Source of the DNA: a virus
Taxonomy: Duplodnaviria > Heunggongvirae > Uroviricota > Caudoviricetes
Strand: one strand, 5' to 3'
DNA: 37,506 nt
Virus record (IMG/VR): IMGVR_UViG_2718218098_000004
The position numbers were made by a program, and so were the translations under genes. Positions 1 to 30,462 of the stretch are shown here, one piece after another. Numbering within the stretch: the first letter of the stretch is position 1; the number at the start of each line of letters is the position of its first letter. The notes beneath the pieces were generated by a model. It searched no databases. It saw nothing but the letters and a program-made list of their open reading frames with translations, and was not told the DNA's origin.

Positions 1-2157
1 TTACAGCGTTGGGAAGTTTGTTGATAATGGTACTATTGCATATTCAATTTTTGTTGGTGGCTGATTTGCCGCGCTGAATGTTGAAAGGGCCTCAAGCACA
101 ATATACCCACTTCCATTGTATCCGGCTTTAAAGCAACTTTGCAGGTTTGCAATGGAAGTATCTCCTGGGTTTAAACGCTGGTCAATAGGGGGTTTAAGGT
201 CAGTTGCGTCGGCTCTTGCTGTTGCGTCATGCGCACCAGAAGACATGATATATGTAGCATAATTATTTTTTACACCTCCAGTCACTTTTATGTGGAGAAG
301 GTAAAGAGTGCGATCAGATGTAGAACCAGTCAATATCTGTTTATCAAGAGTAATTCGTACCTTTGAGCCATCAGATAACACAGGTAAAGACTTGCTTAAC
401 ATTGCTACGCCATTAACAGTATTATCATAACCATTTCCGATATAGTTACCTGAACCTACAAAAGCTGAGTTCATTCGCCAGATATCTTCTGCCGTAAATA
501 ACCCTGACGTAATGAAGTTACCTGTCCATACGTTTCTGTTTCTTTCTGGTCTTGCATTAAGCACCATTCCAACACCCCCGGCCATGAAGTTGCCAGATAT
601 AACTGCTCCTGACATATCGGTAGTGTTGATGCATTGGAGTCTTAGGTCTTTGTTAACACCAGGATCAAGAACCATTTGCATGGTATTGCTGTTGATACTA
701 ATTCCGGCACACCACGTGCCATTAAAACCGTTGTTATTGTTGTTTAACGCCTGTGAAGCGATGAAATTAAATATCCTCTGTTCTGAAGGATTTGTAGCAC
801 CTTTATAGTAGAAAACATTTCCTGTAATACTAACAAGAGAAGTTCTAAGGAATATAGCGAAATCGTTAAGCGGGTTTTCCTCAAAATGATAGATATTGTT
901 AGAAATAACTGAACGCCCACCAAGACCGACTCTAGTACTACCATCAAATTGCAATGACATCATTTTATTAGCTGTATTGACAAATCTGTTGGAAGTTATG
1001 TTTATTTCAAGCCCCCCAGTAAATGTATCCATCTCACACGCAGACTCAGCATTCCTGTTCATAAGTAAATTTCCAGAGAAAGCGCCTCCTATCGTCGATC
1101 CTCCGATTTTTATAATATCTGCATTCGGACCGGTCTGCATAAAAACATCAAAGGTGTTATTCGTTATGTGGAACATTGACTTGCGAGGAGTTCCAATGTC
1201 GACGGATGCAGTCGTGTTGCCAAGAATCATCAGATATGGATATACCTCACCCTGTTCACCTGACATTCCTGCATCAGAGATATACTGATCTGTGTTGTCA
1301 TCAGTCTTGCAGTAGTTATTATCAACTGAAATATGTACGCTTGTTGGGTCCTGACAGTTAACCATGATGTAGCCAACACCGCAGTTAAAGCATTGCATAT
1401 CTTTTATCACCACGCGCGTTGGTAAATTCGCCAGCCCATCAGGGTAATCATTGAAAATTACCTGAGGACGCTGGGTGTGGTATGCATTTGCGGTGAACTT
1501 ACCGCCGATAATCTCTACTGATTTTGCGCCAAGCGGATGGAAAATATAATCAATGCCATTGAAGGTAAATTCTCCAGTAGAAGCATCGATAATGATGTCT
1601 CCTGGGATGGTGATGGGGGCTGTTACATCGTACACACCTGATGCTACAACTCTCGTTTTGTTTGCAACCGCATAATTTACAGCTGCCTGTAATTTTTCTG
1701 ACGCATTACTTCCGGGGAATACCTCGGGGACAACCCATTTGATGGCATCCTGTACCGTGCCATATGGCATAATCCCAACAAGACCAGCGCCGTCTTGATT
1801 AGAAAGCCTAATCTCAAATTGATCAGGGTCGTACTTCAGCACATTAGGGAAATAGAACTGCTGTGATCCATATGCATCGTACACAGACATAGAATGACCT
1901 TGCACAGTTACAAACTTGGCAATCTGTCCGTTATATACCGGATATCCAGCAGCATTAATGATGATTGGTTGCGAAACAGGAACGTGAGAGCCATCTTCGT
2001 TCTCTACATAAACCTGAATCTGGTTTTCTGGATTTACGGGGTCCGTGTCAATTTTACCGATATAAATTTTGCCATTGGCAACCGCTTTAAAAGAACGCGC
2101 CATAGTGAAAAGTTGCGAAGGCATCGATACGATCACATTGGCTGTAATGTCTGTCAT
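1..2157 (-). CDS. Tailspike protein (P22 gene 9 family): conserved N-terminal head-binding domain fused to a divergent receptor-binding body
   Basis: First ~110 aa (MTDITANV...YDPDQF) match the head-binding domain shared by P22/Sf6/HK620 tailspikes as recalled; remainder differs from the P22 and HK620 bodies; GGAG upstream of ATG at 2155-2157. Confidence 0.9.
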   Translation of the reverse strand: MTDITANVIVSMPSQLFTMARSFKAVANGKIYIGKIDTDPVNPENQIQVYVENEDGSHVPVSQPIIINAAGYPVYNGQIAKFVTVQGHSMSVYDAYGSQQFYFPNVLKYDPDQFEIRLSNQDGAGLVGIMPYGTVQDAIKWVVPEVFPGSNASEKLQAAVNYAVANKTRVVASGVYDVTAPITIPGDIIIDASTGEFTFNGIDYIFHPLGAKSVEIIGGKFTANAYHTQRPQVIFNDYPDGLANLPTRVVIKDMQCFNCGVGYIMVNCQDPTSVHISVDNNYCKTDDNTDQYISDAGMSGEQGEVYPYLMILGNTTASVDIGTPRKSMFHITNNTFDVFMQTGPNADIIKIGGSTIGGAFSGNLLMNRNAESACEMDTFTGGLEINITSNRFVNTANKMMSLQFDGSTRVGLGGRSVISNNIYHFEENPLNDFAIFLRTSLVSITGNVFYYKGATNPSEQRIFNFIASQALNNNNNGFNGTWCAGISINSNTMQMVLDPGVNKDLRLQCINTTDMSGAVISGNFMAGGVGMVLNARPERNRNVWTGNFITSGLFTAEDIWRMNSAFVGSGNYIGNGYDNTVNGVAMLSKSLPVLSDGSKVRITLDKQILTGSTSDRTLYLLHIKVTGGVKNNYATYIMSSGAHDATARADATDLKPPIDQRLNPGDTSIANLQSCFKAGYNGSGYIVLEALSTFSAANQPPTKIEYAIVPLSTNFPTL

Positions 2158-2292: not shown

Positions 2293-2553
2293 ATGTACAG
2301 CAAATACGACGAGGCGCAGTTTCACTTGAGACTTCCGCATGAACTTCACGCGAAAATTAAGCAGCGTGCGAAGATGAATAACAGGTCGCTGAACTCAGAG
2401 ATAATTGCAGCGATTGAAGAATCATTGGATAAACAAAGCTCTGCATCAGTTTACATTGACGATGCAGAGCGTATGGCAGAACAACAATCTGATATGGTTA
2501 AGAAAATTGTCTTTGATACGCTCAAGGAGCTATATAAAAAAGACAGCAGCTAA
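2293..2553 (+). CDS. mnt: Mnt-like ribbon-helix-helix repressor (86 aa)
   Basis: C-terminal segment NDAERMAEQQSDMVKKIVFDTLKELYKK closely resembles P22 Mnt; N-terminal beta-strand region FHLRLP is RHH-like but diverged; only the last 86 codons of track ORF 1894-2553 are used because the upstream part overlaps the tailspike gene. Confidence 0.75.
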   Translation: MYSKYDEAQFHLRLPHELHAKIKQRAKMNNRSLNSEIIAAIEESLDKQSSASVYIDDAERMAEQQSDMVKKIVFDTLKELYKKDSS

Positions 2554-2573
2554 CCATCAGTTACGGAGGATTT

Positions 2574-2651
2574 ATGCAAAGAGATATGCTGAACATTGCG
2601 TTCTACATATTTGGTTTTTGGACGTTCCTGGTGTTTGCGAAGCTATTCTGA
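2574..2651 (+). CDS. Candidate 25-aa hydrophobic peptide MQRDMLNIAFYIFGFWTFLVFAKLF directly downstream of mnt
   Basis: GGAGG 3 nt before ATG at 2574; one predicted transmembrane helix; overlaps the 3' end of the convergent ejection-protein gene by 9 nt; below the 60-aa track cutoff. Confidence 0.3.
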   Translation: MQRDMLNIAFYIFGFWTFLVFAKLF

Positions 2652-5036
2652 CAACGCATCAGACTTGGCACCCTGAGTAAGGGCGTTAATGGCCTTTTGC
2701 GCCTGCTGCATGGCTTTCTCAAACGCTGTTGATCCGCGTGGGGTGTTTGCCATTCGGAGCATTGCATTTCTGAATGGCTCGCTCTCATAGGCGCGAGTAA
2801 GAAGTCCGTAGCTTACTGCTGCGCCAGTTGTCGCCGGGTTCATTGCCGTCCCATATCCGATAATGAACGGGATGGTTTGCTGCCCTGTTGGTGTTGTTAC
2901 TGCCGCTTTTGCTGCCTGCTGAGTGGACTGAAGGTAGTTTTTCAATCCTTTCAGATAAGCGGCTTCCTGACCTTTAAATGTGATGCCAGTCTGGTTTTGC
3001 AGGATGTTAAGCTGTCGAAGGAACTGGTCAGGTGAACCACCTGATTTCTCTATCGCCTTTCCAATGATGCCATTGCGCATTTGCGCTCTTCCAACGCGAC
3101 CAACTGAGTTATACAGCGTCTTAATTTCCGATTTGTTCTTGCTGAATAGCATGTTGTTGACAACTTCCGGCGTCAGGTCGCCTTTCATGAGAACATTCTT
3201 CAGCCTGGTATTCTTTAGTTTCGCCGCTTCGTCAGCGTATACGGCATTGGCCTGCTGATATTTACGGAGAGTATCGTTGCCAAGATTCTGACCAATGGCA
3301 CCATTGATATCGTCTGTCATCGCCTTGTAAACGCGCTGAATGGCAGCATCGGAACGGTTTGGTAACACTGGTCGTTCACCCTTCACGTCCATTCTGAACT
3401 GGCTGCGCAGATCGCTTAATTGCTTCAAATCCAGATTTACCGGACCATCAGGACCAGCATTGCGAACAAGCTCATCACGATATGACTGAAGTTTTGAAAT
3501 AGTCTCGTTATCAGCAACCTTACCAAGCTTCTGCAGGTTAGATATTTCTGTATCAATCTGCTGAATTGCTCGCGCAGGCTGAATGTTTACTCCAGCCATA
3601 GCATTCTGAACCTGCTCCAGTCGATTACCGGCGGCACGACGAATTCCTGATGTTTTCGCTTTAAGGCTGTCAATAACAACAGATGGATCATACTCACCGA
3701 ATTTATCAGCAAATCTCTGCACCAACTGGCTTCTCGCTTCCTGTTGCGTTGCTCTCATCCCGCTTGTGCCAGCCAGGGGGATATTTTCCGCTGTCGTCTG
3801 CGCCATTTTCCCGACGCGGGAAGTAGGCTGTAACAGGTCTGTGGTGTGCAGAGGAACTCCTTCACGCTCTGCAAATCTGATAGCCTGCTGCGCTTCTGGC
3901 GCAATAGCACCACGAACGCCACGATAAGCAGCACCTAATCCACGTCCGGCAGCGTTAATAGCACCGCCAGCCAGCACACCAACGCCTAAATCGGTAGCGA
4001 GTGCTTCCGCATCATCTTTCATACTGTTTGCAGCAAGTGATCCAACTGCGTTTTCTGCGAGAAGGCGAGTTGCCCCCTGAGCAATTCGACCAGCAAGTGT
4101 TGGTGCCTGTGTTGCCGCTCTCTCAACGCCAGCAGGAGTGAGGTAAGGCAATGCTTCAGCAAATACCCTCCCCTCTGTCGTTTGTGGAGTCAGCGCGCCT
4201 TGCTGAAGGCCAAAGTCCTGCTCTAATCCCTGCGTTGTTACTCGTGGTGCTGGTTGATATGTACCATCGCCAATGCCGAGTTTACCGCCAGCCCAAGCCG
4301 CCGCGCTTGTTACAGCATCAGTGAGTTCAGCAGGTATGTTCGCTACGTTGATTCCTGCCTGTAGTAAGCCGCGCCCGGTTTCAGCAAGTCCATTACCAAG
4401 GTCAGACATTATTCCGCCTTGCTGCTGAACAGGTTTCGGTGCGACAGAACTTACGGGTTGAGGTGGCTGCTGACTGGCTGCCTGCTGCTCAATCTGAGCA
4501 AATGGATTATTTGGGTCTGACTGCACGCCTGATGCCGATACTTGTTCGGATGACTGTGCTTCCAGTTGTGCAAACGGGTTGTTAGGGTCTTGCTGAGGAT
4601 GTACCTTTGCAGAGGTGGCGCGCTGTTCGACTGTTGAGTCTGTCACCGGGTCACCCGCCCATTGAGCAAAGCGATCATCAACGTAACCGCGGCCTTCAGG
4701 TCCTGGCGTATATTCACCACGCTTTGCCTTCATAACGTTGCCGGGACCGTCGTGATAAGCCTGAAGAGCGTCACGCCAGTTACCAAACTGCTGGTACATC
4801 TTTGCCAGATAGCGCGCGCCAGCGTCAGCCTGATATTCGGGGTTTTGCATTTGCTCATCGGTATAACCCATATCACGCCATGTCCCAGGCATGACCTGAG
4901 TCAATCCTACAGCCCCGGCGGAGCTTACTGCGGCAGGGTTGTAAGAAGACTCCTTGGCACCCAGTGCAGTCATCAACCCTTCTGGCACACCGTAACGTGC
5001 GCCAGCCTGCTCTAACAAATCACGGTAATTAGCCAT
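2643..5036 (-). CDS. Ejection/DNA-transfer protein at the P22 gp16 position, with an N-terminal lytic transglycosylase (SLT) domain
   Basis: Position after the gp20-like gene; N-terminus carries SLT-like motifs (AKESSYNP, GLTQVMPGTW, AGARYL); internal duplicated DPNNPFAQ(L/I)E motif. Confidence 0.8.
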   Translation of the reverse strand: MANYRDLLEQAGARYGVPEGLMTALGAKESSYNPAAVSSAGAVGLTQVMPGTWRDMGYTDEQMQNPEYQADAGARYLAKMYQQFGNWRDALQAYHDGPGNVMKAKRGEYTPGPEGRGYVDDRFAQWAGDPVTDSTVEQRATSAKVHPQQDPNNPFAQLEAQSSEQVSASGVQSDPNNPFAQIEQQAASQQPPQPVSSVAPKPVQQQGGIMSDLGNGLAETGRGLLQAGINVANIPAELTDAVTSAAAWAGGKLGIGDGTYQPAPRVTTQGLEQDFGLQQGALTPQTTEGRVFAEALPYLTPAGVERAATQAPTLAGRIAQGATRLLAENAVGSLAANSMKDDAEALATDLGVGVLAGGAINAAGRGLGAAYRGVRGAIAPEAQQAIRFAEREGVPLHTTDLLQPTSRVGKMAQTTAENIPLAGTSGMRATQQEARSQLVQRFADKFGEYDPSVVIDSLKAKTSGIRRAAGNRLEQVQNAMAGVNIQPARAIQQIDTEISNLQKLGKVADNETISKLQSYRDELVRNAGPDGPVNLDLKQLSDLRSQFRMDVKGERPVLPNRSDAAIQRVYKAMTDDINGAIGQNLGNDTLRKYQQANAVYADEAAKLKNTRLKNVLMKGDLTPEVVNNMLFSKNKSEIKTLYNSVGRVGRAQMRNGIIGKAIEKSGGSPDQFLRQLNILQNQTGITFKGQEAAYLKGLKNYLQSTQQAAKAAVTTPTGQQTIPFIIGYGTAMNPATTGAAVSYGLLTRAYESEPFRNAMLRMANTPRGSTAFEKAMQQAQKAINALTQGAKSDALSE
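4490..4600. repeat. Imperfect tandem duplication inside the gp16-like gene (period about 72 nt)
   Basis: gcaaatggattatttgggtc at 4498-4517 and gcaaacgggttgttagggtc at 4570-4589, encoding the repeated DPNNPFAQ peptide. Confidence 0.5.
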
Positions 5037-18085: not shown

Positions 18086-18427
18086 AACCTCGTCTAGTTG
18101 TTCGCCATAGATTCAGTGGCAGGCGGTGACGAGTCCGCTTTTCGGGAGCTACCCTAGCCACTGCTTGATTCTATCCGATGTCTTTCCATCAGTCCGCCAC
18201 CACAAAGAATCTTTTTTGCCATAAGGCAGGAGGTTCATCTTTCAGTGGCTGCCAGTGTTATTTCCCCACTTACTGGCTTGGGTTGTTTCGCTGTACTGCC
18301 GTAACTGGTGGTGCACAGATTTAGTTAAATCTGTTCTCGCCTGAACTATCTTTTACATACCCGGATTGTGGGGATGTAAATCACGGTTTCATTATCAAGC
18401 CCACCCGTAGATAGGCTTTGTAATGAC

Positions 18428-26698: not shown

Positions 26699-26977
26699 TC
26701 AGGCCTCGAAGAATTCGCCGTTCTTCGGGGCTTTTTCTTTTGTCAGCATTCTGGCTACTTTCTTAGCCAGTTCCGCCAACTCCTCGTCTTCAACACCCCA
26801 TTCAAGAACAGCCAGAAGCATTCCCATTTTGGGGATGAAGCTGTCTTTCCATCGCGAAATTTGCGATTCATTAATCCCTAACGCGTCGGCAACCTTTCGC
26901 TGACCACGTACAGCAATTCGATTCAGGATGTTGCTTGTAATTGCATTCGCTTTCTTGCGAGTACTTGTAAGTTCCAT
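26699..26977 (-). CDS. c1: CII-family transcriptional activator (P22 C1-like)
   Basis: From MELTSTRKKANAITSNILNRIAVRGQRKVADALGINESQISRWK resembles P22 C1 / lambda CII; start at the ATG at 26975-26977. Confidence 0.85.
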   Translation of the reverse strand: MELTSTRKKANAITSNILNRIAVRGQRKVADALGINESQISRWKDSFIPKMGMLLAVLEWGVEDEELAELAKKVARMLTKEKAPKNGEFFEA

Positions 26978-27034
26978 ATGTAAGTATTTCCTTAACAAAT
27001 AAGAAGTTATGCGCATCAACTTATGCGCGTTGTA

Positions 27035-27078
27035 TTCCCGCATTTCGGCGGGAATGAGGACCATGACTGTTAAAGAGC
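27035..27078 (-). promoter_or_regulatory. nutR: boxA GCTCTTTAACA followed by boxB hairpin UCCCGC-CGAAAU-GCGGGA in the cro-c1 interval
   Basis: Identical boxA and boxB sequences recur on the plus strand downstream of PL. Confidence 0.7.
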
Positions 27079-27085
27079 AATTTGC

Positions 27086-27271
27086 TTATGCCGCTTTGCG
27101 GTAAGCGCTTTCTTGATACTTCAGGGCGCCAGCTGTAACGACTTCCAGTCGATAGGCGTCTTTCTCTGGGATGACTTCCTTCCACTGAGAGACTGCTGCG
27201 TCGCTAATGCCTAACGCTTTAGCTACAGCACGCTGGGTTCCGAAGTGGTCGATAACATCTTTCTTGTACAT
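27086..27271 (-). CDS. cro: Cro repressor (P22 Cro-like)
   Basis: 61 aa, near-identical to P22 Cro as recalled (MYKKDVIDHFGTQRAVAKALGISDAAVSQWKEVIPEKDAYRLE). Confidence 0.9.
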   Translation of the reverse strand: MYKKDVIDHFGTQRAVAKALGISDAAVSQWKEVIPEKDAYRLEVVTAGALKYQESAYRKAA

Positions 27272-27351: not shown

Positions 27352-28002
27352 ATGAAAACTCAATTGATGGGAGAGCGCATTCGCGCTCGGAGAAAAGAAC
27401 TCAAGATCAGGCAGGCCGCACTTGGAAAGATGGTCGGCGTGTCTAATGTTGCCATATCTCAGTGGGAACGCTCTGAGACAGAGCCAAATGGAGAGAATCT
27501 TCTCGCCCTGGCTAATGCGTTGAAGTGTTCCCCTGACTATCTGATGAAAGGAGAGGAAAGTCTTTCAAACATTGCCTATCACAGTAGGCATGATCCAAGA
27601 GGGTCATACCCTCTGATTAGCTGGGTGAGCGCAGGATGCTGGATGGAAGCTGTAGAACCATATCATAAGCGTGCAATAGATAACTGGTACGATACAACCG
27701 TAGCCTGTTCAGAAGATTCGTTTTGGTTGGACGTGAAGGGAGACTCAATGACGGCTCCGGCCGGTCTCAGTATCCCTGAAGGAATGATAATACTCGTCGA
27801 TCCTGAAGTAGAGCCGCGTAACGGGAAACTGGTAGTTGCAAAGCTCGAAGGAGAAAACGAGGCAACTTTCAAGAAGTTAGTTATTGATGCAGGCAGGAAG
27901 TTTCTAAAACCACTTAACCCACAATATCCGATGATCGAGATCAACGGAAACTGCAAAATCATCGGCGTAGTTGTCGATGCAAAACTAGCAAACCTTCCAT
28001 AA
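27352..28002 (+). CDS. c2: C2 repressor (P22 C2, lambda CI family) with LexA-like autocleavage domain
   Basis: 216 aa, near-collinear with P22 C2 as recalled, including the HTH GKMVGVSNVAISQWERSE and the C-terminal peptidase region. Confidence 0.95.
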   Translation: MKTQLMGERIRARRKELKIRQAALGKMVGVSNVAISQWERSETEPNGENLLALANALKCSPDYLMKGEESLSNIAYHSRHDPRGSYPLISWVSAGCWMEAVEPYHKRAIDNWYDTTVACSEDSFWLDVKGDSMTAPAGLSIPEGMIILVDPEVEPRNGKLVVAKLEGENEATFKKLVIDAGRKFLKPLNPQYPMIEINGNCKIIGVVVDAKLANLP

Positions 28003-28028
28003 GGGGGCATTCGCCCCTTTTTTTTATT
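28003..28028 (+). terminator. Intrinsic terminator immediately after c2
   Basis: Stem GGGGGC/GCCCC(U) with loop AUUC followed by nine U residues. Confidence 0.8.
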
Positions 28029-28093
28029 TCCTTTAAAAATCAAAGCCAAACTTAAGTTACGAAAGAAAATTTAAGTTTTCTTCAAAAATACTC

Positions 28094-28122
28094 TTGACCA
28101 TTAATTAAAGAGATCTTAAATT
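28094..28122 (+). promoter_or_regulatory. PL promoter (-35 TTGACC, 17-bp spacer, -10 TAAATT) with OL1 operator ATTAAAGAGATCTTAAAT (28104-28121) in the spacer
   Basis: Hexamers and an 18-bp site fitting the same pattern as the OR sites; a weaker OL2 candidate lies at 28069-28086. Confidence 0.7.
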
Positions 28123-28168
28123 TAAGCCATCAGCAGGACGCTGGAAGCCAAACGGAACAGATTGGCAG

Positions 28169-28209
28169 GCTCTTTAACATTGATGGGATTGTCCCGCCGA
28201 AATGCGGGA
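28169..28209 (+). promoter_or_regulatory. nutL: boxA GCTCTTTAACA (28169-28179) and boxB hairpin UCCCGC-CGAAAU-GCGGGA (28192-28209), about 40 nt downstream of PL
   Basis: Same boxA and boxB as nutR. Confidence 0.7.
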
Positions 28210-28773
28210 ACTGAGTTTAACCAAACAGGAGGTGCCGTAATGGTGCACTAACGCGGTTAGACCGCAGCCGAAAGGCAATGCAGCAGTAATGATGCTGCCC
28301 CGAGTCGCGTAATGGCGAGCAGGTTTAGCAGGCCGATGTGAGGGTAAATAAGGGAACATGCTCCGGAAAGGCAGCGCGAATGCCAGACGCGCACCGGTTA
28401 TCAGCGGCTAATAAGCGACAGAGACTCAAGGGCATGAGCGCGCTCACTGCGAGAGTGTGAGTCAAATAGTAGTTGGCTTTGGGGTGACGTGAAGTGCAGC
28501 TGCACGACGGCAACCGGAAGATAAGCACCCGGCGCGTCACCGCCAAAGTCAATTCCATAGGCGTTATGCAGCCGCCACCATATTCAAGAAAGCTGCACAA
28601 GAGGTAGGAGGATTTATGTGAATGCATAACTTCAAAACCGAGGTTAATTAAATCTCTCGATCCGAGCATCAACCTATTAGGTGGCGAGATGCTCTTTCTG
28701 CCCCTCAGTTCGAGGGGCCAGAAACCACTTTGCAATCACTATCAATTCCAAAGTTGTTTCATCGGAGGTCAAC

Positions 28774-29073
28774 ATGACAGTAGTCATTACATATCTGGCT
28801 GACGATAACGCCAGAAATCGCCGCAGAGCACGCAGACAGGCTCAACGTGAACAGACGATGCAAGAGCAGCGACTGGCGCGAAAAATTGCGCTAAAGCTCT
28901 CTGGTTGCGTCAGAGCAGATAAAGCAGCATCACTCGGAAGCCTTTGCTGCAAGAAGAAAGAAGAAGTCGAGCGTAAACAGAACCGTATTTACTACCGCAA
29001 GCCACGCAGTGAAATGGGGGTGACTTGTGTTGGTCGCCAGAAAATGAAATTAGGCAGCAAACCACTTATTTGA
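28774..29073 (+). CDS. N: N-family transcription antiterminator (99 aa) with arginine-rich motif
   Basis: N-terminal NARNRRRARRQAQREQ; C-terminal RKQNRIYYRKPRSEMGVTCVGRQKMKLGSKPLI resembles lambda / phage 21 N; GGAGG 5 nt before the ATG at 28774. Confidence 0.85.
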   Translation: MTVVITYLADDNARNRRRARRQAQREQTMQEQRLARKIALKLSGCVRADKAASLGSLCCKKKEEVERKQNRIYYRKPRSEMGVTCVGRQKMKLGSKPLI

Positions 29074-29083
29074 GGACTGATAT

Positions 29084-29326
29084 ATGAGAGTAAAATTTAT
29101 GGGCGCAAGCCCATTAAGCGGTCGTATTTTTCAAGGAACATTAAACACTGAAAAAGGAATGTGGGTGGGAAAGAAAGAAGATGTCACCGAGCAAGCAGTT
29201 AAGGCAGTAGCCGAACACATGATGATAAAAGAACAGAAATATGCATACGAAACGAAGGATGGAAAATGGCTGATAATAAGTCATCAAATAGTTGATAAAT
29301 TACCAGAAGAGTTTGTTGATGGTTAA
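29084..29326 (+). CDS. Hypothetical protein (80 aa) directly after N
   Basis: GAGGA upstream of ATG; no family recognised. Confidence 0.5.
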   Translation: MRVKFMGASPLSGRIFQGTLNTEKGMWVGKKEDVTEQAVKAVAEHMMIKEQKYAYETKDGKWLIISHQIVDKLPEEFVDG

Positions 29327-29454
29327 ATTTGCTTTGGAATAAGCAACAGAATAAACACTGCACTGTGTATTCATTCCAACGAGTGAATACACGGAGCAAT
29401 GTCGCTCGTAACTAAACAGGAGCCGACTTGTTCTGATTATTGGAAATCTTCTTT

Positions 29455-29481
29455 GCCCTCCAGTGTGAGGGCAATTTTTTT
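29455..29481 (+). terminator. tL1-like intrinsic terminator between the 80-aa and 322-aa genes
   Basis: Stem GCCCTC/GAGGGC with loop CAGTGT followed by AATTTTTTT. Confidence 0.65.
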
Positions 29482-29493
29482 GATGGAGGATAT

Positions 29494-30462
29494 ATGAGTG
29501 AAGTAACAGATTTAGTTGTTATTGAAAAAGCAAATGCAATGACTGTATTTCAGTCTGCCGACCAGATTGAAGAAATCCTTCAAAAGGTTGAACGTGAAGT
29601 TATGTCCTTTGTGCCTGATATCACAACGGCAAAGGGCAGAAAGGAGATCGCTTCTCTGGCGTATAAAGTTGCGCAGACGAAAACATATCTCGATGGTCTT
29701 GGCAAAGACCTTGTTGCTGAACTGAAGGAAATTCCAAAGCTAATTGATGCTAACCGCAAGACAGTGCGTGATCGCCTTGATGAGCTGAAAGCCAAGGCGC
29801 GCCAGCCTCTTACTGATTATGAGGAAGAACAGGCGCGGATTAAAGCCGAAGAAGAAGCTAAGGCAGCAGCTGAAGCTCTCGCAAAGCAAATTGAGTCTGA
29901 CCATGAAATAGCGATTTTGATGGATCGCGAATTTGACCGCCAAAGAGAAGAGGCAAGACTCAAAGCGGAGCAGGAAAAGCGAGAGCATGAAGAACGCTTA
30001 AAAAGAGAAGCTGAAGAGAAAGCCAGAGCAGAAGCCGAAGCAAAGGCAAAAGCCGAAATTGAAGCAGCAGCAAGGCGAGAAGCAGAAGCTAAGGCCGCAG
30101 CGGAACGTGCAGAGCGTGAACGCATTGAAGCCGAGCAACGAGCACAGCGCGAAGCAAAAGAGGCAGCAGAACGAGCTGAAAGAGAAAAGCAGGCAGCAAT
30201 TGAAGCAGAACGCAGAAAAGCACAGGAGGAGGCTGAACGAATCCGTCGCGAGGCTGAAGCAAAAGAGCAAGCCAGAATAGCAGAAGAAAAAAGAATCAAG
30301 GACGAAGAAGAGCGTAGAGCAAAGGATAAAGCTCACCGGAAAGAAGTAAATAACAAAATACTTGCTGACCTTATCAAGGTTGGTGCATCAGAAGATGTTG
30401 CTAAAAATATCATAACAGCCATCGTAAAAGGCGAAGTATTCGCAACAAAAATAACCTACTAA
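29494..30462 (+). CDS. Hypothetical protein (322 aa) with a long E/R/K/A-rich helical central region
   Basis: GGAGGA before the ATG at 29494; central segment is a highly charged repeat (AEAKAKAEIEAAARREAEAK...) typical of a single alpha helix or coiled coil; globular N- and C-terminal regions unrecognised. Confidence 0.6.
   Translation: MSEVTDLVVIEKANAMTVFQSADQIEEILQKVEREVMSFVPDITTAKGRKEIASLAYKVAQTKTYLDGLGKDLVAELKEIPKLIDANRKTVRDRLDELKAKARQPLTDYEEEQARIKAEEEAKAAAEALAKQIESDHEIAILMDREFDRQREEARLKAEQEKREHEERLKREAEEKARAEAEAKAKAEIEAAARREAEAKAAAERAERERIEAEQRAQREAKEAAERAEREKQAAIEAERRKAQEEAERIRREAEAKEQARIAEEKRIKDEEERRAKDKAHRKEVNNKILADLIKVGASEDVAKNIITAIVKGEVFATKITY

Follow-up and report, generated by a model that had tools for sequence, protein, structure and literature searches.

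The stretch of DNA analysed here in full, referred to below as the window, is the 37,506-nt IMG/VR virus record IMGVR_UViG_2718218098_000004, a P22-like (Lederbergvirus-type) prophage, and our subject is the long interval that separates its early-left promoter, PL, from the antitermination gene N, above all a ~235-nt structured RNA cassette within this interval, termed here module A. The plus strand of the window carries cI, N and the remaining genes of the PL operon, and the positions of these and of all other features are collected in Table 1. PL is a sigma-70 promoter that directly follows cI and its terminator, is the single promoter-like site found by a promoter scan of positions 27900-29200, and is predicted to start transcription at ~28129. 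It is homologous to the pL/OL region of phage HK620 (99% identity to the annotated pL), and the stretch around it, for which pL, OL1-3 and nutL are annotated in HK620, aligns at 98-99% identity, so that the nutL of the window (99% identical) can be taken as the counterpart of HK620 nutL. The N protein harbors an arginine-rich motif, NARNRRRARRQAQR, matches the Pfam N_peptide family weakly, and is encoded by a gene that is annotated as N also in HK620, HK140 and mEp213. The components of a lambdoid PL-nutL-N leader were all found here, namely a cI-linked promoter, a boxA with a boxB, and an arginine-rich N downstream, and the distance between PL and N amounts to ~645 nt, compared with ~190 nt in HK620, which bears out the unusual length pointed out by the first-pass annotation of this DNA.

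Pairwise BLAST of the leader against five related phages divided it into segments, three of them shared with HK620 and two of them insertions, module A and module B, one on each side of a shared hairpin segment. Module A is flanked by the direct repeat TGAGT...TGAGT and module B by a 17-nt imperfect direct repeat (28549-28565 and 28742-28758), though a repeat search found no terminal inverted repeats at either module. Module A occurs without module B in mEp213, in two Stx2c phages and in the Hafnia phage yong1, module B occurs without module A in HK140 and CUS-3, neither is found in HK620, and both are present in prophages of the E. coli strains 55989, M6 and M9. Among 5426 complete E. coli genomes, module A was found in 113, module B in 159 and the complete leader with both in 16. 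A common origin of the two modules was considered and rejected, the covariance model of module A (described below) giving no match on module B or on loci that carry module B only. By alignment, then, this is an ordinary HK620-type leader with two independently distributed RNA cassettes, and it is these inserted cassettes that account for its extra length. The first-pass annotation had asked whether the interval is a conserved module or an insertion, and the answer is two inserted cassettes, each recurring in other phages; its reading needs refining in that the leader is a mosaic rather than one long evolved structure, and what deserves interest is a mobile RNA cassette of ~235 nt that contains a mini-ORF (open reading frame) of its own, not the length of the N leader. 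As for fold stability, compared with dinucleotide shuffles the whole leader had a z of -3.23 (none of 20 shuffles was as stable), a signal spread unevenly over the hairpin segment (28462-28556, z -4.38), module B (z -2.75) and module A (z -0.64).

Table 1. Features in and around the PL-to-N leader, with positions in the window (SD, Shine-Dalgarno sequence; HTH, helix-turn-helix).
Feature	Position	Strand	Details
Structural, lysis and Q genes	1-20868	-	
Replication genes		-	
cII	26699-27064	-	
cro	27086-27271	-	
cI	27352-28002	+	HTH and Peptidase_S24 domains (Pfam)
cI terminator hairpin	28001-28020	+	sole terminator in plus-strand scan
PL, TTGACC-17-nt spacer-TAAATT	28094-28122	+	promoter scan
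Segment shared with HK620	28122-28211		HK620 1501-1590
nutL	28168-28209	+	direct reading; match to annotated HK620 nutL (1547-1588)
nutL boxA, GGCTCTTTAACA	28168-28179	+	
nutL boxB hairpin, TCCCGC-cgaaat-GCGGGA	28192-28209	+	
Module A	28212-28462	+	251-bp insertion, missing from HK620 and HK140; pairwise BLAST and junction sequences
Full-length match of model R1	28226-28464	+	cmsearch 237.4 bits, E 1.6e-76, model positions 1-238
SD and mini-ORF of module A	28227-28251	+	AGGAGG 28227-28232; ATG GTG CAC TAA 28240-28251
P1 hairpin	28253-56/28262-65	+	
P2 hairpin	28267-69/28274-76	+	GAAA loop; 3/3 pairs changed on both sides
P3 hairpin, GCAGCA/TGCTGC	28280-85/28293-98	+	conserved loop GUNAUGA; 6/6 pairs changed on both sides
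Three-way junction domain	28299-28344	+	junction helix encloses P4 and P5
Junction helix, CCC with GAGGG region	28299-28301/28340-28344	+	register in window subfamily inferred
P4	28305-08/28315-18	+	third pair GC 45, UA 17, AU 8, CG 7
P5	28322-24/28332-34	+	third pair UG 47, AU 31, GC 7
Pseudoknot, P5 loop AGC with GCU	28327-28329/28360-28362	+	GCU just 5' of P6
3' domain	28363-28461	+	P6, P7, P10, P8, P9
P6	28363-66/28394-97	+	encloses P7
P7	28374-78/28388-92	+	loop GAAnGCCAGA; 5/5 pairs compensatory
P10	28407-09/28414-16	+	
P8	28425-28/28435-38	+	near-invariant loop AGGGCA
Palindrome GAGCGCGCTC	28436-28445		
P9 terminal hairpin	28443-47/28457-61	+	
Segment shared with HK620	28463-28553		HK620 1591-1681
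HK620-type irregular hairpin	28471-28554	+	~21 bp; predicted RNA fold
Palindrome GTGCAGCTGCAC	28494-28505		
Module B	28554-28758	+	205-bp insertion, missing from HK620 and mEp213
Module B hairpin, GCAGC/GCTGC	28568-72/28592-96	+	repeat search
SD and start-stop minicistron of module B	28606-28621	+	AGGAGG 28606-28611; ATG TGA 28616-28621
Module B hairpin, GAGCATC/GATGCTC	28664-70/28688-94	+	repeat search
Module B hairpin, GCCCCTC-AGTTC-GAGGGGC	28700-06/28712-18	+	repeat search
Module B 16-nt hairpin, GAAACCACTTTGCAAT/ATTCCAAAGTTGTTTC	28721-36/28745-60	+	ends 3 nt before N SD
Segment shared with HK620	28759-28900		HK620 1681-1822
N ribosome-binding site, GGAGG	28764-28768	+	
N, 99 aa	28774-29073	+	phrog_271 'anti-termination protein N-like', E 2.9e-37

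A sensitive BLAST search with module A gave its first homologues, which were un-annotated, 77-83% identical and located in unrelated phages at unrelated positions: after the lysis genes of E. coli phage vB_EcoS-733R5, in Klebsiella phage RothC directly after gene Q and ahead of tRNA genes, in Providencia phage PSTCR7lys within the PL operon, and ahead of a terminator in Klebsiella phage phiKO2. Two independent anchor patterns, CTCAAGGGCATNNGCGNNNNCACT and GCACCGGTTATNAGCGG, were each found in more than 120 IMG/VR contigs (lower bounds), largely at the same loci. Among species-representative genomes CTCAAGGGCATNNGCGNNNNCACT was matched in 89, and 68 of these hold the whole element: 66 Enterobacterales, including Escherichia, Citrobacter, Kluyvera, Enterobacter, Klebsiella, Morganella, Proteus, Providencia, Xenorhabdus, Pectobacterium, Rahnella, Edwardsiella, Tatumella and others, and two contigs labelled Vagococcus and Bacillales. 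In the other 21, from unrelated phyla, the rest of the element is absent, and we regard these matches as chance, their number being about that expected of an 18-base pattern. A covariance model, R1 (238 positions and 43 pairs, built from 36 sequences), gave 93 matches in 98 sources, mostly outside the seed and scoring 44-260 bits (84 of them above 150 bits), a single one of which lies in the window (nhmmer E 8.6e-67), and none in HK620, HK140, CUS-3 or IHE3034. The family as assembled here counts at least 249 copies and 202 distinct near-full-length sequences. As it occurs in just 17 of 50,697 deposited phage genomes, its rarity there is probably why it has gone unnoticed so far.

The structure of module A rests on covariation, which we measured in two alignments. 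In a MAFFT alignment of 85 sequences less than 93% identical to one another (35 pairs in nine helices), 94.5% of the cells were paired, compared with 85.0% after shuffling (0 of 500 shuffles), 24 of the 35 pairs showed compensatory changes, there were 223 compensatory cells as opposed to 46 in the shuffles, and partners slid by 1-3 columns paired at ~30%. The R1 alignment of 92 distinct, mostly non-seed sequences (43 pairs) gave the same picture, with 94.7% of the cells paired against 82.4% (0 of 500), compensatory changes in 31 of the 43 pairs, 385 compensatory cells against 91, and slid controls at 30-39%. Six extra pairs outside the model, which form a junction helix and a pseudoknot, were paired in 95.8% of the cells against 86.3% after shuffling (0 of 500; 47 compensatory cells against 13). 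The family form of the junction helix is CCY/RGG, with C-G 56 times and U-A 28 times, and the first pair of the pseudoknot, 98.6% of whose cells are paired, is AU 53, UA 8, CG 5 and GC 3 times. The P8/P9 region was exact in 126 of 157 copies retrieved by the independent anchor, that is, without being selected for, and its variants are compensatory (CUCA/UGAG to CCCA/UGGG in P8, CCAC/GUGG to CUAC/GUAG in P9), and several loop sequences are near-invariant across genera. We are highly confident, for the structural and the family claims jointly, that module A belongs to a large family of ~235-nt structured phage RNAs, one that appears not to have been described before, and that its predicted fold comprises ten covariation-supported helices, a junction helix and a pseudoknot. 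An excess of G-U over A-C pairs in the helices (92 against 22), together with the co-orientation of flanking ORFs described below, indicates that the folding species is the sense transcript.

The palindromes and hairpins listed by the first-pass annotation are all present (Table 1), in module A, in the hairpin segment and in module B. The palindrome GAGCGCGCTC consists of the 3' arm of P8 beside the 5' arm of P9 and is not conserved in the family, most copies having GAGCG(C/T)GGCC. Three further pairings were considered and set aside: a long-range pairing of 28253-55 with 28439-41 proposed by RNAalifold, where the G/A and C/U variation is near independent; GUCGC (28304-08) with a distal GCGAC, the complement being present in 66 of 95 copies compared with 44% for foreign arms, which we found unconvincing; and a GAGUC/GACUC pairing, whose partner positions vary without covariation.

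Copies of the family were also compared at the 5' end, where the window has the SD and the mini-ORF that the first-pass annotation, correctly, had reported along with nutL. Of 109 distinct copies, 99 have a start codon at the corresponding site (96 of them ATG), as do 82 of 89 R1 matches, and an SD-like motif is found in 86 of those 99 copies and 81 of the 89 matches. The ORF has no more than three sense codons in 91 of the 99 (one codon in 14, two in 17 and three in 60) and in 74 of the 82 in the R1 set, 7-14 copies having a bare start-stop (ATG-stop), and the encoded peptide is not conserved (M, MK, ML, MKQ, MVH, MKH, MHQ and others). Since SD, start and shortness are kept and the peptide varies, selection appears to act on initiation followed by immediate termination, not on the product. 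Judged by this conservation, the 3-codon mini-ORF is a defining part of the cassette. Its stop codon lies 2 nt ahead of hairpin P1, and if the mini-ORF is translated, as we infer, a ribosome initiating or terminating there would have to contact or melt P1.

To characterize where module A resides, the flanking ORFs of 184 copies were clustered and combined with annotated phages. Three genomic slots recur: the PL leader, in the order cI, PL, nutL, module A, N (cI upstream in ~34 copies, N downstream in ~28); the late leader, between the antiterminator gene Q and holin or tRNA genes (~28 copies), often right behind an intrinsic terminator, probably tR'; and a position after the lysis cassette, with spanin-like genes (~10 copies) or an unannotated 97-amino-acid ORF (11 copies) upstream and an 81-amino-acid ORF downstream, the former following the lysis genes and the latter preceding terminase in phage 733R5. 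On this comparison cassette A is not specific to N, being found also in late-operon leaders and after the lysis genes of unrelated phages. Just 6 of the 184 copies are followed directly by tRNA genes. Of 147 copies, 37 have a terminator-like hairpin within 110 nt on the upstream side and 27 have one on the downstream side, compared with 10% of control windows, and the flanking ORFs are both co-oriented with module A in 97 loci and both opposed to it in 11. Conservation begins at the SD and the sequence upstream varies with the context, so that no promoter appears to travel with the module, the scan around the leader of the window giving just PL. All three slots belong to operons that are silent in the lysogen, and for this reason, along with the lack of a promoter of its own, module A RNA should be made during lytic development alone. 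It is purine-rich (G 32%, U 17%, GC skew +0.15 to +0.19), as is usual in stable structured RNAs.

Some individual copies deserve mention. In mEp213 the PL operon has two annotated N-type antiterminator genes (394-726 and 1879-2151 of locus L002), and module A (1537-1775) sits between them together with three small ORFs, hence not directly after nutL. Two copies per genome were found in Pseudocitrobacter vendiensis, Kluyvera sichuanensis, Morganella morganii H1r, Xenorhabdus budapestensis and Xenorhabdus yunnanensis, in the last of which (L209) both nhmmer matches fall within 7.7 kb. One member (L297, 2623-3042, minus strand) takes 420 nt to cover the full model (176 bits) and has a ~180-nt insertion within its fold, which may be a nested element or an enlarged variable arm. 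The full-length copies on contigs labelled Vagococcus sp. WN89Y (L182, 169 bits) and Bacillales metagenome-assembled genome (L211, 209 bits) are probably contamination or mis-binning and no true extension of the host range.

The interval is non-coding. Its five ORFs (three on the minus and two on the plus strand) had no Pfam or PHROGs match, and the Prokaryotic Genome Annotation Pipeline (PGAP) calls no coding sequence (CDS) between cI and N in strains M9, 55989, M172-1 and CUVET19-1937. Across module A, at most 16 of 109 distinct copies have any one frame, on either strand, open along its full length, and 1-nt insertions and deletions are frequent among copies. The first-pass annotation had held that no plus-strand frame exceeds a handful of codons; this is too strong, as there are three ORFs that start with GTG or ATG (28338-28460, 28494-28607 and 28689-28802; 40, 37 and 37 codons) and a GTG extension of N, but none of them shows coding constraint. 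The two minus-strand ORFs that it had dismissed as non-coding (28174-28359 and 28325-28735) do exist, and their dismissal is backed by the lack of a family match and by substitutions spread evenly over codon positions 1, 2 and 3 (17/12/14 between two module B variants, for the 136-amino-acid ORF). This latter ORF crosses three segments, each of which relatives have or lack independently of the others, and the PGAP-annotated 129-amino-acid minus-strand protein of IHE3034 aligns with it over just 82 amino acids, the divergent part not being conserved; the IHE3034 CDS is thus probably spurious, its sequence showing no coding constraint. Minus-strand stop-free runs in module A copies have a median of 59 codons, a length attributable to composition, as 42% of shuffled 106-nt segments are also stop-free. 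The homology search suggested by the first-pass annotation revealed no degraded protein gene (Pfam, PHROGs), the comparison of the same interval in related prophages found it rich in compensatory base changes, and with no conserved frame either, its proposal of a structured non-coding RNA rather than a protein gene has held up. Public 'hypothetical protein' CDSs nonetheless lie over the cassettes in IHE3034 (WP_011478232.1; 734-1123, minus strand, locus L225), RothC (XDI99235/6; 2416-2752, minus strand, locus L011) and HK140 (HK140_048; 1622-1747, plus strand, locus L001).

We next set module A against what is already described. At the gathering threshold, the 4227 models of Rfam 15, among them AgvB, AsxR, STnc100, C4, IsrK, the group I intron, ribozymes and riboswitches, matched the window with int-alpA alone, away from the leader; permissively, nothing scored above 14 bits within 28000-28900 at E<=10, and nothing lay over the element in six other members at E<=1. 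ARAGORN found no tRNA or transfer-messenger RNA (tmRNA) in the window. The known prophage small RNAs AgvB, AsxR, Pas and STnc100 were considered and rejected as counterparts: they reside at the PR' moron site, have Rfam models and gave no match here. A full-text literature search yielded no description of module A RNA, which is weak evidence since most subscription journals lie outside such a search. Having no counterpart in Rfam, among tRNA and tmRNA, among known small RNAs or in this literature, module A is treated here as a new family.

Several known systems nevertheless resemble it in part. The window follows the lambda-type N leader in the order of PL, boxA/boxB, long hairpin and N ribosome-binding site, and its HK620-type core (28123-28211, 28463-28553 and 28759-28773) is an ordinary example of one; unlike it, the leader of the window is three times longer, and each inserted cassette brings its own SD together with a minicistron, either a start-stop or one of three codons. 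In phage HK022, which lacks N, the put RNAs lie just downstream of PL and PR and are cis-acting antiterminators of ~70 nt with two hairpins and no ribosome-binding site. Module A shares with them a structured RNA immediately downstream of an early lambdoid promoter, as part of the nascent transcript, but it is no ~70-nt two-hairpin RNA of a phage without N: it has ~235 nt, ~ten helices and a mini-ORF, is found in phages that do have N or Q, and is not confined to the vicinity of promoters, a distinction drawn from the description of put. The lambda bar minigenes are carried on PL transcripts, depend on a specific AUA codon and have no attached structured RNA, and minigenes of two to three codons are reportedly the most toxic (Guarneros, Buckingham, Ehrenberg). 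Module A resembles bar in having an SD and a two- or three-codon ORF on an early transcript, and differs in that the last sense codon is not a fixed AUA (its codons vary and some copies have none) and that its ORF forms one unit with a conserved fold. Ribosome profiling in E. coli has revealed start-stop sites and upstream ORFs of very few codons, and like them the ATG TGA of module B and 7-14 module A copies have an SD and a start codon with a stop at once or almost at once; those, however, are isolated sites in cellular 5' untranslated regions, and here they form the conserved head of a mobile RNA cassette. Finally, int-alpA and the larger GOLLD and ROOL are likewise conserved prophage folds of unknown function, recognized by covariation alone and located in non-coding slots between gene blocks, sometimes beside tRNA genes, whereas module A has a different sequence and structure with no Rfam match, and to our knowledge an integral ribosome-binding site and mini-ORF is not a described feature of any of the three.

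How these observations fit together can be stated as follows. The interval is the untranslated 5' leader of the PL early-left transcript, consisting of nutL, an ancestral hairpin and one cassette on each side of this hairpin. Cassette A is a passenger of antiterminated lytic operons, residing after PL/nutL, after Q/PR'/tR' or after the lysis genes, and during lytic growth it would form, or be processed into, a stable RNA particle with its 5' end occupied by a ribosome and its 3' end closed by hairpin P9. Whatever the adjacent genes, its conserved loops may then target a part of the host that is itself conserved, the translation apparatus being the most plausible candidate. This full statement, of an autonomous lytic-phase RNA particle that engages the ribosome, is the one towards which we lean, by a modest degree of belief that mainly weighs an autonomous RNA function involving the ribosome against the alternatives in cis; processing, stability, partner identity and effect on phage fitness are all conjectured. 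A bolder version, which we consider speculative and rather unlikely, is that module A is the first of a new class of phage RNAs acting on the ribosome, which docks one by its SD-AUG-stop head and then traps, marks or reprogrammes host translation, or blunts a ribosome-linked defence, by its invariant loops (such as GAAnGCCAGA, GUNAUGA and CUCA-AGGGCA-UGAG) in the course of lytic growth.

Several points weigh against the picture of a folded, autonomous, ribosome-engaging RNA family. What module A does is purely a matter of inference, and the conserved SD-AUG could instead be kept for RNA-RNA pairing or for an effect in cis on the mRNA that follows. The R1 alignment was fitted to the model itself, and it was in this same alignment that the junction helix and pseudoknot were chosen post hoc, for which reason we regard them as good leads and not as proof. 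About a third of the copies leave position 1 of P1 unpaired, and P10 has a weak third pair. In free energy, module A is no better than shuffles (z -0.64 in the sense strand, -0.42 in the other), and since these values are not significant thermodynamic stability is not used as an argument for its structure, which rests on covariation instead. Under crude ORF calling, about a quarter of the loci have at least one oppositely oriented flanking ORF. Lastly, both search anchors lie inside the element, so that members diverged in both, or outside Enterobacterales, would be missed.

After the autonomous particle, our order of preference runs through a cis-regulatory N leader, a put-like or anti-Rho element, a bar-like minigene and a selfish insertion to a protein gene. 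That the whole 645-nt interval is a cis-regulatory N leader, operating by RNase III processing, nutL autoregulation and upstream minicistrons, has a real though minor chance of being right: the interval lies between nutL and N, the long hairpin with its z of -4.38 resembles the RNase III site of lambda, and module B is found only upstream of N genes, its last hairpin stopping 3 nt short of the N SD. However, module A is the same in sequence and structure where there is no N gene, after Q and before holins or tRNAs as well as after lysis genes and before terminase, and HK620 and HK140 carry the same N gene without module A; as the one occurs without the other in both directions, this explanation can hold for module B and the long hairpin, not for module A. 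Distinctly unlikely, in our view, is that module A acts in cis on transcription or RNA survival, as a put-like antiterminator or as an insulator against Rho or RNase E with a parked ribosome and a compact G-rich fold. Its usual sense orientation in long antiterminated operons, often right after a promoter or antitermination site, would suit such a role, as would the quarter of the copies just downstream of an intrinsic terminator and the 18% just upstream of one, the G-rich and U-poor RNA, whose skew would make it a poor Rho loading site, and the precedent of put just downstream of PL and PR in HK022. Yet the host phages already encode N and/or Q, the post-lysis context is far from any promoter, and a ~235-nt RNA with ~ten helices, a pseudoknot and near-invariant loops, unlike the ~70-nt put RNAs with their two hairpins, far exceeds the needs of insulation.

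Less likely again is a toxic minigene of the bar type, which, strongly expressed from PL or PR', would use up tRNA or ribosomes through peptidyl-tRNA drop-off or through slow termination and thereby contribute to host shut-off, with the fold as no more than a stabilizer of its RNA. The strong SD and the ORF of one to three codons are indeed kept in most copies, and bar minigenes are likewise found on PL transcripts, but the sense codons of module A are not conserved, its 7-14 bare start-stop copies yield no peptidyl-tRNA, and a stabilizer would not explain near-invariant loops in a fold of ~200 nt. It is very improbable that both modules are selfish or neutral insertions, whether MITE-like (miniature inverted-repeat transposable elements) or debris of illegitimate recombination, with hairpins that serve as single-stranded DNA or recombination signals. 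The short direct repeats that flank both modules and their patchy distribution among close relatives could be so explained; against this stand the lack of terminal inverted repeats, the more than 200 distinct copies that keep their helices by compensatory changes and their loops invariant from Escherichia to Xenorhabdus and Providencia, the G-U excess and the co-orientation with transcription, which point to sense-strand RNA, and a conserved SD-ATG-stop that would be meaningless in DNA. As for a real or degraded protein gene on either strand, be it the minus-strand ORF or the 42-amino-acid HK140_048, we find it hardly credible: the minus-strand ORF is open over 129-136 amino acids in the window and in IHE3034, where it is annotated, and long stop-free runs recur on the minus strand of many module A copies, but family matches and a conserved frame are both lacking, the codon positions are evenly substituted, and the frame spans a mosaic.

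Module A is of interest in several respects. The early regulation of lambdoid phages is well studied and still hid a 235-nt RNA with an architecture on the level of riboswitches or ribozymes, present in at least 200 distinct versions across Enterobacterales prophages without a name, an Rfam model or an annotation. A conserved ribosome-binding site and 1-3-codon ORF fused to a structured RNA is unusual and offers an experimental handle, and natural comparators exist on E. coli K-12, namely mEp213 (module A only), HK140 (module B only) and HK620 (neither). Phage 'morons' can, on this evidence, be RNA cassettes, and variation in the length of N leaders is modular. Should module A indeed act on the ribosome, it would constitute an RNA-only factor of host takeover or counter-defence that moves between phages as a cassette; should it merely stabilize transcripts in cis, it would still be a useful new RNA family, of modest importance.

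The hairpin segment between the two modules is common to HK620 at 98% identity, where it directly abuts the N ribosome-binding site. It folds at -41 kcal/mol, none of 200 shuffles being as stable, and bears GTGCAGCTGCAC and CCGG...CCGG as sub-hairpins at the tip of the long hairpin. The lambda N leader holds an RNase III site, and the processing of this leader and the autoregulation of N in lambda have reportedly been worked out by Court and colleagues. As in lambda, an imperfect hairpin of at least 20 bp lies here between nutL and the N ribosome-binding site, and by analogy of position and shape we consider it a putative RNase III processing site, the counterpart of that in the lambda N leader.

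Module B was always found directly upstream of an N gene, among the E. coli genomes and the IMG/VR variants alike. Its two main variants, the window/HK140 type and the CUS-3 type, are 78% identical overall, and AGGAGGATTTATGTGAAT, which holds the SD followed by ATG TGA, is invariant between them, the two having been compared independently. About ten further variants from IMG/VR, all immediately upstream of N genes of three N types, were retrieved using this 18-mer as the pattern and so add no weight to its invariance, and three other IMG/VR matches to the pattern proved to be unrelated sequences. The CUS-3 variant keeps remodelled stems, as in the change of GCCCCTC-AGTTC-GAGGGGC to CCCCG-TCTAATTGG-CGGGG, though the distribution and diversity of module B are too small for a strong covariation test. 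The hairpin at 28700-28718 is followed by CAGAAACC and not by the U run of an intrinsic terminator, in line with the terminator scan (Table 1). Because it is confined to N leaders, module B probably tunes N expression in cis, and the likely means would be its start-stop minicistron and the hairpin that ends just before the N ribosome-binding site.

Further observations concern the neighbouring genes. A GTG at 28681, in frame with N, would extend it by 31 codons across the module B hairpins (28681-29073, plus strand), and the PHROG N-like profile has 176 positions, of which the N of the window covers just 58-170; many N proteins in the databases may thus have spurious upstream starts. The gene right after N (29084-29326, plus strand) encodes a DUF7446 protein (E 9e-29; phrog_1578), and the small genes at this position differ among related prophages. 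Further downstream, a 340-amino-acid ORF (29440-30462, plus strand) has a very long central region rich in Glu, Ala, Lys and Arg, probably a coiled coil (EEEAKAAAEALAK...), and owing to its repetitive composition several long spurious ORFs overlap it on both strands. Far from the leader, with the lysis genes on one side and the small terminase gene on the other, the int-alpA motif (RF02996; 45.1 bits, gathering score 35.8) occupies 18102-18164 on the minus strand. This slot is of the same kind as that of module A in vB_EcoS-733R5, and orphan RNAs thus seem to use equivalent slots in lambdoid and P22-like phages.

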